In this document: piece by piece, positions 40,477 to 49,348 of the stretch
Position numbering within the stretch: position 1 is the stretch's first letter
How the letters are laid out: every line of letters starts with the position of its first letter
NCBI GenBank assembly: GCA_964016885.1
Contig: OZ024742.1
Coordinates: 104,656,001 to 104,720,000 of the forward strand
Length of the DNA: 64,000 bases
Reading direction: 5' to 3'
From: Eledone cirrhosa
Lineage: Eukaryota
Position numbers and translations under genes: made by a program
The notes under the pieces: generated by a model
What the model saw: only the letters and a program-made list of their open reading frames with translations
Told to the model about the DNA's origin: nothing
The model's database searches: none

Positions 40477-40730
40477 GGAAAAAGTATGACCCCGACGGCA
40501 GAGCTCAAGCCGTTTCGACGGCTATTTCTGGGTCCAGAAATAGCCGTCGAAACGGCTTGAGCTCTGCCGTTGGGGGTCATACTTTTTCCTATTTCCCCAC
40601 TCTACTACCCTAAGTATTGAGTACTCTGGTGCGTTATGGTCCTTACCACAATTCCTTTGTTATATATATGCATATATAACAAAGGAATTGTGTTAAGGAT
40701 GGACCATAACGCACCAGAGTACTCAATACT
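40477..40730. mobile_element. double-hairpin hammerhead-half element in (TA)n
   Basis: Hairpin 40477-40589 (~55-bp arms, GT centre) and hairpin 40613-40730 (centre on TATGCATA). Confidence 0.88.
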
Positions 40731-40817
40731 ATATATATATATATATATATATATGCATATATATATGCATATATATATATATATATATATATATATATAT
40801 ATATATATATATATATA

Positions 40818-42078
40818 CAGGGTGTGGACGATATTTGTTCGCAATTTTCAACTGCTAATTTTATGCAAATTTTGCTTACTTCCGTTGTCACTCTTGACTT
40901 CATAAAAACAGTGACTATATTTCCATTATTTATTTTCAGAATAATTGATTATGAATAATTTTGAACCTCCAAATTCGTGGAATCCGCGCTGGGAGGACAA
41001 ATAAGGAAATTTCAGACTTTCTCAGCGTCAGCAGGAGAATGGTGGAAAAGGTCAGAATTTAATTGGAAGATTCAGGATTCGACTACGAAGCAACATCAGA
41101 GAGGAAAACACATAATCGACGATCTAACGCCTTCAGAACGCCCGAGTTCGTCCCTGAAGTTCAGGATATCATCAACAATGAACCTAGCAAGTTGATGCGA
41201 GCCATTGCAAGGGAGAAAGATGTGGATGAAAAGCTCATTAGGCTGGTGGTACATGAAGACATGCGCTACGTTTCATACCAGATGAGGAAAGGACAATTTC
41301 TGTCAAAGGCGATGCAAGAAAAGCGACTGAAGCATGCAAAGAAGCTGATCAACAAGTTGAAACACCCACTGGAGCCAGACATGTTGTGGTTTTTCTCGGA
41401 CGAGAAAACTTCTGCCAAGACCAGAAGATCAACTCCCAGAACAACAGGTGGCTCGCTGTCTCATCCAAAAATGTGCCCAGAGTCATGCAGACAAAGTTTC
41501 CAGCTACAACATTGGTCTTAGGTGTCGTCAGCAGTCAAGGTGACATCATGCCACCTCACTTCTTCTCTGAGGGCCTCAAGCTGAATACCGATGGATACAT
41601 CCGCGTTCTGAGCGAGGTAGTAAAGCCCTGTATCGACCAGGTAGCTGCAGGTAGGCCGTACGTGTGGCAGCAAGACTCAGCGCCCTGCCATACCAGCCGA
41701 AACACCCAAGCCTAGCTGTCAGAGAACTTCGTCGACCACACTTCACCTGACATCTGGCCTCCCAGCTCGCCTGACTGCAACCCCCTCGACTTCTTTGTGT
41801 GGGACGCAGTGGAACGAGACACCAACAGATCTGGCTGTAATACGAAAGACGATCTGAAGGCCAGGATCACAAGTGCCTTTAGAGGTCTAAGTCGGGGGAC
41901 AGTGACGAAGGCCTTGAGGCCGTCACCAAAGCCAATGGCGGGTTTATTGAGTGAGATCGAAAGAACAAGTCATGAAGACAAACTGACCCAAGTTTGATAA
42001 ATATATCTTAAAAAATAAAACTACTGTGTTATTTTTTCCTAGACAGTAATCTTGCGAACAAATATCGTCCGCACCCTG
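40818..42078 (+). mobile_element. full-length DD37D (maT-family) Tc1/mariner transposon, inactivated
   Basis: 27-bp TIRs CAGGGTGTGGACGATATTTGTTCGCAA / TTGCGAACAAATATCGTCCGCACCCTG with TA flanks. WFFSDEK...QQDSAPCH...WPPSSPDCNPLDF has 37 residues between the 2nd and 3rd Asp. Frameshift ~41405, stop at 41713. Confidence 0.93.
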
Positions 42079-42169
42079 TATATATATATATATATATATG
42101 TATATATATATGCATATATGTGTATATGTATATATATCTATATATATATATATATATATATATTATACA

Positions 42170-42501
42170 TATCATCATCATTTCATTTAATCATTTCATT
42201 TTACGTCCGCTTTTCCCTGCTTGCAAGGGTGGGACGGAAACTGATTCTGGCTTGATTTCTACAGCTGGATGCCCTTCCTAACACCAACCTCATTTACAGT
42301 GAGTGCTGGGTGCTTTTTTGCCGTGGCACCTCCACGACCACTTTGCAGTCCCTATCATCTCATTTCTACAGCTGAGTAAACTGGAGCAATGTGAAATAAA
42401 GTGTCTTGCTCAAGGAAACAACACATCACCCGGTCTAAGAATTGAACTCACAACCTTTCGATTGCAAGGCCAATGCTCTAACTACTAAGCCATGTGCCTC
42501 C
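42170..42501 (-). mobile_element. SINE family A copy
   Basis: Reverse complement of 7584-7936 with a small internal deletion. Confidence 0.92.
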
Positions 42502-43135
42502 ATATATATATATGTGTGTATATATGTATATATATATATATATATATATATATATATATATATATATATATATATATATATATATATATATATATATATA
42601 TATATATATATATATATATATATATATATATATATATATATATATATATATATATATATATATATATATATATATATATATATATATATATATATATATA
42701 TATATAATATATATATATATATATATATATATATATATATATATATATATATATATATATATATATATATATATATATATATATATATATATATATATAT
42801 ATATATATATATATGTATATATATATATATATATATATATATATATATATATATATATATGTATATATATATATATATATATATATATATGTATATATAT
42901 ATATATATATATATATATATATATATATATATATATATGTATATGTATATATATATATATATATATATATATATATATATATATATATATATATATACAT
43001 ATATATACATATATATACATATATATACATATATATATATATATATATATATATATATACATATATATTTATACATATATATACATATTATATACATATA
43101 TATATACATATATATTTATACATATATATACATAT
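42502..43135. repeat. ~630-bp (TA)n microsatellite
   Basis: Direct reading. Confidence 0.97.
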
Positions 43136-48079: not shown

Positions 48080-48499
48080 CGAGACCTTCAAGATAATAAA
48101 GAATCATCTGTACTCTACCAACATGCTAAGATAGAACACAAGGGTAAATTAGAGAACATAGAAATAAAAATAGAATCTACACACAGAAAAGATGCAATGT
48201 TTAGACAAATTACAGAGGCAATAAACATAAAAGAATTACAACCAAAATTAAATAGAAAATATGAGTGGAACAGCAACATCACAACTTACAATTAAGGACA
48301 AAATGAAAACACACACACACATAGAACAAACAACCAACCAATAACATGTAAATAAATAAACAAATAGATAAATGAACACAAACACACACAGACACCCGGA
48401 TGTGGCGCATGCGCAAACTGAGCACACAACACACACACAGAAACAAAATGGCGTAGGACAGAAGAAAGGAAAAGCACAGAAACAAAGAAAGGAATCCCC

Positions 48500-48544
48500 A
48501 GTCACTGAAGAGGTCACAGAGTGTGTGACGAAAGGACTATGACT
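48500..48544 (+). ncRNA. minimal type-I hammerhead ribozyme in PLE 3' UTR/pLTR
   Basis: AGTCA-CTGAAGA-g-GTCACA gagtg TGTGAC-GAAAG GA CTA-TGACT. Confidence 0.82.
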
Positions 48545-48870
48545 ATATATAAACAACTATCTGGTTGTGGAACCAACCAACCAACCAGAAATTTATAAAT
48601 TTATAAATATATAATAAATTGAAGTGAAAGCAACTGGTGCGTGTGTTTCTTATTGGCAGCATGACCCTCCCAAAGTATAACAATATCGGTTTCAACACAC
48701 GATTTCAGATAAAGAATCTTGCTAAACAAATTCAGAAACGAAATATATATATATATATATATATATATATATATATATATATATATATATATATATATAC
48801 ACACAAGTATACAAGCAATTTATAAACGTAAACATGTAAGTATGTTTTTGAAACGGTGCCAGAGTTTGAA

Positions 48871-49094
48871 ATTAGAAATTAGAAATTATAAGCTTTCACC
48901 GTATTTTAGACTAAAGAAATTTCTAGCCTGATAGTGGGGTTTATAACCCTCGGAGAAATGGAAAAAGATGAGTGTTGCCGTACATGGCAACACTCATCTT
49001 TTTCCATTTCTCCGAGGGTTATAAACCCCACTATCAGGCTAGAAATTTCTTTAGTCTAAAATACGGTGAAAGCTTATAATTTCTAATTTCTAAT
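48871..49094. repeat. palindrome, 109-bp arms with no mismatch seen, 6-nt spacer
   Basis: 48871-48979 is the reverse complement of 48986-49094; contains GGTGAAAGCTTA near the outer end. Confidence 0.93.
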
Positions 49095-49233
49095 ATATAT
49101 ATATATATATATATATATATATATATATATATATATGTATATATATAGTAATAATAATAAATTTGAAGACTAAAATCCAAAGAGGGCTCGATAAGGATAA
49201 ATATATATCAAATATATAAGAACCGTAGAGCAA

Positions 49234-49348
49234 ATATTTATTAAAATAACAGATTAAGTTTAAGCAAAGAATCGCTGCTTTCACCCTCCTGTTAAGGGTG
49301 AAAGCAGCGATTCTTTGCTTAAACTTAATCTGTTATTTTAATAAATAT
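49234..49348. repeat. palindrome, 54-bp arms, hammerhead 3' half
   Basis: Arms match 38667-38720; centre TCCTGTTAAGGGT corresponds to stem II of the 38690-38740 motif. Confidence 0.9.

Follow-up and report, generated by a model that had tools for sequence, protein, structure and literature searches.

The palindromes in the window (the whole stretch of Eledone cirrhosa DNA analysed, 64,000 nucleotides) were the inner parts of asymmetric insertions in (TA)n, each combining a long arm that carried a tail of ~80 nt with a short arm, and they belonged to abundant Penelope-like element (PLE) families of the Hydra type. Their most probable origin is from two target-primed cDNAs that ran off a capped sense RNA at a position designated +1 and were then end-joined. 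The elements themselves are ordinary PLE by-products; what is likely to be new relative to known PLE units, judging from sequence patterns, is a junction at the putative capped start, accompanied by an extra G. The following features were delimited in the window:

6458..6513, minus strand: short arm of family A, reference +6 to +61, abutting a (CT)n run
8940..9100: diverged relative of family A, with a long arm at 8940-9057 (minus strand) and a short arm at about 9064-9100 (plus strand)
38666..39375, minus strand: 5'-truncated, short-ended copy of family B, reference -634 to +75
38690..38740, minus strand: family B type I hammerhead-like motif, core CAGAAGA, within the copy at 38666..39375
40474..40531, minus strand: short (tail-less) arm of family A, reference +4 to +61, by blastn against the natural parent copy L104
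40532..40664, plus strand: long arm of family A, reference +2 to +142, mate of 40474..40531
40675..40730, minus strand: separate, tail-only arm of family A, reference +81 to +142
46711..48684, plus strand: family C PLE with inverted arm (arm 46711-46806; PLE 46846-48684)
49148..49287, minus strand: long arm of family B with tail, reference +21 to +160
49287..49348, plus strand: short arm of family B, reference +13 to +75, its junction in stem II (a minority class)
49741..49992: family D unit, with a minus-strand arm (49741-49915) and an inverted arm (49915-49992)

A preliminary description of the window had recorded palindromes at 49234-49348 and about 40477-40589. Both were found, the first with 54-nt arms and a 7-nt loop and the second with 42-nt core arms at 40490-40575 and an extension to about 40474-40589, and their arms were indeed 3' parts of PLE hammerhead regions. 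However, both units were asymmetric, since the 40474 unit ran on to 40664 and the 49234 unit started at 49148; the long, tail-bearing arms had been overlooked. The long arm at 40532-40664 comprised the end of loop II, the stem II 3' strand, GAAA, stem III, the GUC site, the stem I 3' strand and the ~80-nt tail. The hammerhead-like motif noted at 38690 was also present; base 38740, the first base of its stem I, corresponded to +1, the presumed RNA start, and no mate arm was seen for the copy that contains it. The family D arm at 49741-49915 held a whole hammerhead motif (49798-49884, minus strand), and this family had only one relative among the sampled loci. The family C PLE contained a truncated ORF with RT and GIY-YIG, and a canonical hammerhead motif at 48500-48544. 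The abundance of the palindromes was far above chance: there were 27,920 and 10,387 exact genome matches to the 3' anchors, and 0 to reversed control patterns.

These families showed the organisation of EN+ PLEs, namely a single ORF with RT and, at the C-terminal end, a GIY-YIG endonuclease, a hammerhead-bearing pLTR that overlapped the 5' UTR of the next ORF, and an inverted 5'-truncated copy with a one-sided tail. The family B ORF was about 709 codons long, with one in-frame stop in locus L193, and YRDD and YIG motifs were recognised by eye; family A yielded only the C-terminal (endonuclease) part of the ORF and family E only the N-terminal (RT) half. Pfam assigned no family to two family B pieces, and returned a sub-threshold GIY-YIG match for family C. 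The tail continued into the ORF in family B (L087, L193) and family E (L267, L278, L287); no family A copy that continued into an ORF was found among the sampled loci. A long arm was paired with a short arm in 71 of 72 family A pairs and in 36 of 48 family B pairs, where some of the pairs of the same type involved a third end at +112. Both the (TA)n target and the motifs were those of the Hydra clade (motif list from section 11 of PMC8557442). Family B carried every motif (RWK-like, DKT, CxCX5C, CxxC and CxH), while RWR and DKT occurred in family E, and CxxC and CxH in family A. As to the CCHH motif, which Hydra-clade endonucleases lack, reading by eye showed a single cysteine before YIG in families A and B. 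Likeness to the Hydra clade, as portrayed in the same section, extended to RWR in place of RWK, DKT, the CxCX5C linker, CxxC and CxH around the conserved E and N, (TA)n insertion and the hammerhead. Unlike those elements, families A and B had 3' UTRs of about 1 kb and non-canonical cores (U3-A8 or C3-A8 in A, U4A in B).

Hammerhead folds were predicted in the A, B and E parents, and the stems and GAAA/UH were present in the hammerhead motifs. The core was mostly CAGAAGA (U4A) in family B and canonical in family E, while among 14 natural copies of family A there were nine with U3-A8, five with C3-A8 and none with C3-G8. U3-A8 was already reported as a variant of PLE hammerheads (PMC4209133). 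Intact parents had been expected and do exist, but those of families A and B lacked the CUGANGA core: where GACCCC-CTGANGA had been predicted before GACGGCTATTTCT, the actual sequence was ACCCC-(T/C)TGANAA-G(C/T)TCGGCTATT. Two sets of candidate parents were rejected on reading. For 713 CTGAAGA matches, taken as intact family B parents, 23 of the 25 loci read carried an inverted arm directly upstream, so that the T was the palindrome centre; for 33 CTGANGA matches, taken as family A parents, the 25 loci read were palindrome centres or chimeras with other elements. Rfam found no hammerhead match in the 64-kb window, and gave sub-threshold microRNA matches there.

Genome copies were collected by sequence patterns. 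Arm ends in families A and B were placed by blastn on 160 tail-anchored loci (192 A arms, 159 B arms), a sample that, being selected by exact anchors, consists of young copies and covers the first 52 Mb of one contig in one genome. A strict base-by-base walk produced false stops where subfamilies differ from the references, such as a peak of 8 at +20 in family E, and inspection showed that its peaks at -3 to -7 in family A were a product of self-similarity; blastn ends were therefore used for A and B, and family E arm ends were read by eye.

Breakpoints were not uniform, as the preliminary description had anticipated, but concentrated at +1 rather than in stem II. The modal arm end was +1 (22 of 192 A arms; 12 of 159 B arms), and three unrelated sequences (A, B and E) all had an Inr-like word at this position, which lay within loop II in family A and at the start of stem I in families B and E. 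In family A, 126 of 192 arms ended between -6 and +7 and 17 went past that zone; in family B, 84 of 159 arms went past +1, ending at scattered places. Reading by eye placed 22 of 30 non-parent arm ends of family E between -3 and +7, with four in the core and four in stem II. For family B, the stop rate per base was 0.048 at +1 to +6; stem II had 0.0092, the core 0.0104 and the upstream part 0.0041. These counts leave out stops at the cleavage site (after +46), since the family B anchor spans it. The corresponding values in family A were 0.108 at -6 to +7, and 0.016 and 0.012 in the two strands of stem II. The excess of stem II over the far-upstream background, about 2-fold in B and about 5-fold in A, cannot be separated here from the effect of trimming at ends whose original stop was +1. 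Family C had no hotspot within the 265 nt examined, and 1 of its approximately 15 truncated ends fell in stem II (by eye).

The +1 position is likely to be the capped transcription start of the PLE RNA. TATAAA occurred at -30 in 15 of 22 family E parents, and TATT(T/C)A at -29 or -31 in all 15 family A parents; family B had no recognisable TATA box. Many family A junctions extended to -4, and therefore the start in this family may be a small cluster of positions. Among contigs of unassembled runs, the 10 strand-switch joints listed for the family B reference all lay at -1 to +23, with 0 in the 140 nt upstream; for the family A reference, the joints listed were too few to use. In two runs, X1 and X6, contig depth climbed steeply at +1; since depth is not copy number and the kind of run X6 is unrecorded, this carries no weight here. 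No RNA entry was among the listed holders of the family B region, which has no bearing on expression.

Junctions were counted by hand from the first 50 listed in each set. At +1/+1 junctions of family B, 38 of 51 non-parental bases were G, and 16 of 17 single-base inserts were G/C against a parental T (p = 3e-9; first 50 of 367 listed); at other B stops G accounted for 8 of 40. Family E provided a prospective test: 70 arm ends comprised 56 G, 12 parental C and 2 T (p = 1e-24; first 50 of 284 listed), G being 56 of the 58 non-parental bases. The same test was ambiguous in family A, whose parent already carries C or T in front of +1. A C-W-G linker was found in all three families (19 of 50 listed junctions in E, 9 of 50 in B and 3 of 50 in A), and each arm had an extra G of its own in 18 of 50 listed junctions in B and 26 of 50 in E. 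The junction centre was TTC-W-GAA in 20 of 50 listed B junctions; this leaves a loop of 1 nt, and closure within one strand is therefore impossible. A literature search of open-access texts found no earlier account of a PLE cap rule, although one may exist.

A mechanism consistent with these patterns would begin with a TATA/Inr promoter in the pseudo-LTR. From it, transcription of a capped sense RNA would start at +1, which lies within the hammerhead or at its edge. The endonuclease would then cut both strands of the (TA)n target, and each strand would serve as primer for reverse transcription from either of two internal positions, which lie 60-75 nt and 140-160 nt away from the RNA start; such double cutting and priming is suggested by the two sharp 3' ends and by PMC11167929. 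The cDNAs would stop at +1 or slightly before it, frequently carrying a C that faces the cap G as well as one untemplated base, a pattern seen in the junction sequences themselves. Their ends would be joined directly through the C-W-G linker or, alternatively, once trimmed back to a self-complementary short word, namely TTC-W-GAA in B and AATT in A, while arms beyond +1 would derive from read-through RNA primed in a downstream repeat. In 14 A and 12 B pairs, the tail-less arm extended beyond the 5' end of its mate by 10 nt or more, and was therefore not copied from it; the tailed arm did so in 6 A and 8 B pairs. Pairs with equal arm ends are compatible with two cDNAs or with one folded-back cDNA, and cannot tell these apart. 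Retroviral strong-stop DNA is a short cDNA that runs off an RNA 5' end. It is fairly probable that both cut strands copy capped, uncleaved sense RNA from the two internal sites, that a pair of strong-stop-like cDNAs joined cap-to-cap by C-W-G is the most frequent product, and that junctions record the transcription start of each family; the promoter would lie inside the ribozyme in some families, so that a whole hammerhead would exist only in read-through RNA.

A single cDNA could instead run off the RNA 5' end, fold back and copy itself, with the short end arising from resolution into the target. Many junctions did show short arm overlaps, symmetric pairs are compatible with such an origin, and PMC3846280 proposed that self-priming occurs at inverted junctions; nevertheless, fold-back is disfavoured as a general route and seems unlikely. 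A tail-less cDNA that is folded back and copied cannot give a copy with a tail, nor can the copy of a tailed cDNA exceed the 5' end of its template, yet in the 26 pairs above the tail-less arm reached further 5'; the separate extra G on both arms also tells against it. Self-priming on antisense RNA, a variant proposed for rotifer PLEs, leaves the G before the sense +1 unexplained. In the preliminary description, stem II of the hammerhead was itself the self-priming or template-switch point. Three junctions in the window did fall there as it had stated: 49287 (+21/+13); about 9060 (9057-9064, +11/+12) in the relative reported near 9011-9114, in the 3' strand of stem II; and 49915, reported near 49916, which belongs to stem II (3' strand) in the hammerhead at 49798-49884. 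Both ends lay in stem II in 6 of 50 listed short-spacer B palindromes and one end in several more, and the stop rate there exceeded the far-upstream background. However, that rate was 5- to 7-fold below the +1 zone and not above the core, and stem II junctions were a minority genome-wide. The exact fold-back signature was found in 1 of 50 listed B junctions (hand count), while ends in the stem II 5' strand, which fold-back needs, were seen in only 2 of 192 A arms; the family C ends also tell against it. Family F formed the same kind of palindromes without a hammerhead. Two counter-examples came from the window, where the family C inverted arm began about 45 nt downstream of that element's hammerhead and a palindrome at 48871-49094 had no hammerhead. 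At 40477-40589, what had been described as a central hairpin occupying the stem II position was created by the inversion itself: native stem II of family A, CGGCTATT/AATAGCCG, closes a loop of ~36 nt, and the junction (+4/+2) lay inside this native loop II, at the +1 hotspot. The half-copy described near 6461 was present, but its breakpoint at about +6 fell just before stem II. In family A the start site lies a few bases ahead of the stem II 3' strand, and this alone makes stem II resemble a fold point there; priming from stem II is quite improbable.

If +1 were a fixed RNA end or a hard stop for reverse transcriptase (a processing site or modified base), the G would be an untemplated addition. 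Such stops exist, given that family F arms ended in or near a tRNA-like acceptor stem; but the Inr-like word at +1 in three unrelated sequences, the TATA-like box ~30 nt upstream in two of them, and the separation of +1 from the hammerhead cut site (in A this follows +41, and 3 of 192 arms start there) make this highly improbable. It is extremely improbable that the hairpins are MITE-like units spreading as such, or assembly artefacts, despite their very high copy number and near-identical best matches. Their ends were unequal and their centres varied between copies, arms were continuous with PLE ORFs, and strand-switch joints were also present in contigs of unassembled runs. Matched terminal inverted repeats around a constant unit were not observed, nor did the sampled loci contain large clades that shared one rare junction and private mutations; the 72 A pairs fell into 59 junction classes and the 48 B pairs into 46. 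The preliminary interpretation was sound in deriving the hairpins from PLE hammerhead 3' parts, with parents and a retro origin instead of TIR DNA transposition, while the stem II hotspot and MITE-like spread did not stand.

In L1 twin priming, two primers act on one insertion and each arm derives from a different part of the RNA; the present arms both copied the same short 5' segment, which produces a palindrome. As in L1 and SVA, whose full-length 5' ends carry an extra G ascribed to the cap (PMC3287187), the extra G stood at cDNA ends that reach the presumed RNA start. The canonical EN+ PLE unit consists of a pLTR, an adjacent inverted 5'-truncated copy and a one-sided tail (PMC8557442; PMC3846280). 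It shares with the present units the head-to-head inverted copy, one-sided tail, microsatellite target, pLTR hammerhead and palindromic inverted junction; it differs in that the units here were mostly minimal (60-160 nt per arm), with a tail of about 80-85 nt against 30-40 nt, and a junction pinned to the putative capped start with an extra G. The portions of those two sources concerned with inverted junctions favour self-priming and give no capped-start junction rule; PMC3846280 left open whether sense or antisense RNA was the template, and PMC8557442 called the origin of tandem and inverted PLE structures undefined. Start sites of Penelope and Chlamys-3 map within the pLTR (PMC2377424; PMC8557442, section 10). 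In vitro, the Anolis Poseidon element PAc cut and extended both target strands, and began reverse transcription at two internal sites, by which the tail is defined; cleavage by the hammerhead was dispensable, and 5'-truncated RNA gave a shorter product (PMC11167929). The relevant portions of that study include neither the joining of two cDNAs nor a cap-derived base. Tens of thousands of natural junctions favour a capped sense template and two independent cDNAs, link genomic palindromes to this in vitro two-site initiation and offer PLE-rich genomes a sequence-only test, G-plus-Inr at inversion centres. Such an origin would also explain a large class of hairpins open to mis-annotation as MITEs or microRNA precursors. 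Non-LTR retrozymes, described as tandem repeats with whole hammerheads (bioRxiv 10.64898/2026.07.22.740005), are similar as short hammerhead-bearing sequences related to PLE pLTRs; tandem monomers with whole hammerheads were not found here, and the sampled A, B and E loci held single head-to-head pairs, those of family A without the ribozyme 5' half.

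All of the features cited in the preliminary description of the window were found; they are listed here by forward-strand position, together with two further families.

About 40474-40589, palindrome of family A
38690-38740, hammerhead motif of family B, with core CAGAAGA, from our own motif scan
49234-49348, palindrome of family B
6461, half-copy
9011, relative
49916, arm
46711-48684, Penelope-like element (PLE), family C
48800-49094, family F, also present at loci L082, L103 and L231-L260 of the same genome; a unit of ~270 nt, sometimes in tandem

However, the central hairpin at 40477-40589, which had been placed at ribozyme stem II, was a product of the inversion; overall, the preliminary description was partly confirmed. 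An Rfam search of the window returned no hammerhead match, the hairpins giving only sub-threshold microRNA matches.

The family A palindrome had 1,758 first-look candidates in the 3.0-Gb genome; the best 20 of these all lay within (TA)n, had centres that varied from copy to copy and carried an extra tail of ~80 nt on one side only, a few being tail-less pairs. Exact 3' anchor matches genome-wide numbered 27,920 for family A and 10,387 for family B; a third family, E, had 11,597, and the control had 0. When long copies were traced upstream, a PLE ORF was reached for family B (L193) and the endonuclease end of the ORF for family A (L181 and L211); in family E the RT half of the ORF lay downstream of the tail. 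By motif comparison, these ORFs agreed with the Hydra clade as described (PMC8557442); a Pfam search of the family B ORF pieces recognised no family. An inverted, 5'-truncated copy with a one-sided tail is known PLE anatomy (PMC8557442, PMC3846280), and in vitro the PLE tail is the stretch between two reverse-transcription start sites (PMC11167929). The palindrome elements are members of this known class.

The 5' ends of arms were mapped in 160 loci from the initial 52 Mb of contig 1 (L071-L230), picked by anchors downstream of the junction, with natural copies as references; arms truncated at the edge of a locus (2 in A, 7 in B) were left out, and 192 A and 159 B arms kept. In both families the commonest end was a single base, +1, numbered from the A of an Inr-like word. 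This base lies in loop II in family A; in family B it opens stem I, 12 nt ahead of stem II, and in family E it is likewise the start of stem I. Stops per base at risk in family A were 0.108 between -6 and +7 (126 arms), 0.003 upstream, 0.016 in the 3' strand of stem II (25 arms) and 0.012 in its 5' strand (2 arms); in family B they were 0.048 between +1 and +6 (33 arms), 0.010 in the core (8), 0.009 in stem II (17) and 0.004 upstream, with 84 arms altogether beyond -6. Stem II stops were thus 2- to 5-fold above far upstream, and level with the core in family B; trimming from +1 could explain this excess. By eye, the 30 non-parent ends of family E fell at -3 to +7 (22), in the core (4) and in stem II (4); an automated count of E stops was set aside, being inflated by subfamily variants. 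Family C has a canonical hammerhead, and its ends were scattered, 1 of about 15 falling in stem II. Family B had 1,137 palindromes with a spacer of up to 30 nt; in a hand count of the first 50, 6 had both ends in stem II, 20 were centred on the core TTC-W-GAA and a single one was an exact stem II fold-back. The earlier proposal that elements fold back at stem II is therefore unsupported: the hotspot is +1 in A, B and E, exact fold-back is rare in B, and family F forms palindromes without a hammerhead.

The bases at the junctions suggest that +1 would be a capped RNA start. Both arms ended at +1 in 367 B sites; in the first 50, G preceded +1 on at least one arm at 36, where the parent has T, and G made up 38 of 51 non-parental bases (p = 3e-9). 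At B stops elsewhere, G accounted for 8 of 40. Tested as a prediction in family E, 35 multi-base inserts with 70 arm ends gave G 56 times, parental C 12 times and T twice (p = 1e-24), a count that leaves out 15 ambiguous single-base inserts. The commonest multi-base insert in E and B was a C-W-G linker (19/50 and 9/50), which occurred in 3/50 in family A; there the G test is weaker, as the parent base is C or T and many junctions extend to -4, meeting at AATT. TATAAA started at -30 in 15 of 22 family E parents, and TATT(T/C)A was present at -29 or -31 in all 15 family A copies; no TATA was found upstream of +1 in family B. In L1 and SVA, an untemplated 5' G is recognised as a sign that the cap has been copied (PMC3287187), and transcription of Penelope and Chlamys-3 begins within the terminal repeat, or pLTR (PMC2377424, PMC8557442).

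Inverted-junction PLE palindromes were earlier ascribed to self-priming, probably on antisense RNA (PMC3846280). In 71 of 72 A pairs a tailed arm was joined to a tail-less one; the tail-less arm reached at least 10 nt further 5' than its mate in 14 pairs of family A and 12 of family B, and the tailed arm did so in 6 and 8, respectively. Since a fold-back copy cannot acquire a tail and at the same time fall short of its mate, and since both arms of one palindrome often had their own G, pairs of this kind need two RNA-templated syntheses. Distinct junction classes numbered 59 among 72 A pairs and 46 among 48 B pairs, so each palindrome was made at insertion. Contigs of X1, an unassembled run that may be the source sample, likewise contained strand-switch joints, located between -1 and +23. 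Two cDNAs joined at the capped RNA start would yield the palindrome junction, and we regard such a capped-start junction as the probable mechanism of these palindromes. The rule appears to be new, no statement placing PLE junctions at a capped start or with a cap-derived G being found in the open-access article text that was searched, and it touches the open question of PLE mechanism. The insertions at L021, L053, L046, L059 and L065 were chimeric, a family A arm being fused to the arm of another PLE family, which suggests that one event can join cDNA ends of different families.

The reading of the arms as parts of hammerheads holds, as both A and B parents carry the hammerhead layout. In family A the order is stem I ACCCC, core (T/C)TGANAA, stem II CGGCTATT/AATAGCCG closing a loop of ~36 nt, GAAA, stem III, GUC and GGGGT. 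The parent with a CUGANGA core that had been predicted did not appear: cores in 14 family A copies were U3-A8 (9) or C3-A8 (5) and never C3-G8, most family B parents had CAGAAGA, and CTGAAGA matches, tried as B parents, mostly marked the middle of a palindrome (23 of 25 loci). The U3-A8 core is a PLE variant already reported (PMC4209133). L080 held another hammerhead family, with a U3-A8 core and long loop II, and many other type I hammerheads with a long loop were present in the fetched loci.

The family F unit holds a 73-nt tRNA-like part, assigned to Ser or Phe by ARAGORN; no hammerhead was found in the unit. It had 2,801 exact anchor matches and was built like a PLE, with a (TA)n target, an inverted 5' arm and both long and short ends; many arms stopped within or close to the tRNA acceptor stem, and its palindromes were the same as those of the hammerhead families. 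Family F may be derived from a tRNA and have been mobilised by a PLE. Other repeats in the window were a palindrome of a SINE-like repeat (9255-9585; 160-nt arms, 11-nt loop), a LINE-type element with a long AP-endonuclease/RT ORF and many relatives among the loci (43135-46136), and fragmented mariner/Tc1-like transposase frames (41063-41997). At L214:3850-4155, a number of A>G and T>C differences had a larger share in X6, a run of unrecorded kind, than in X1; X6 might be RNA with editing.
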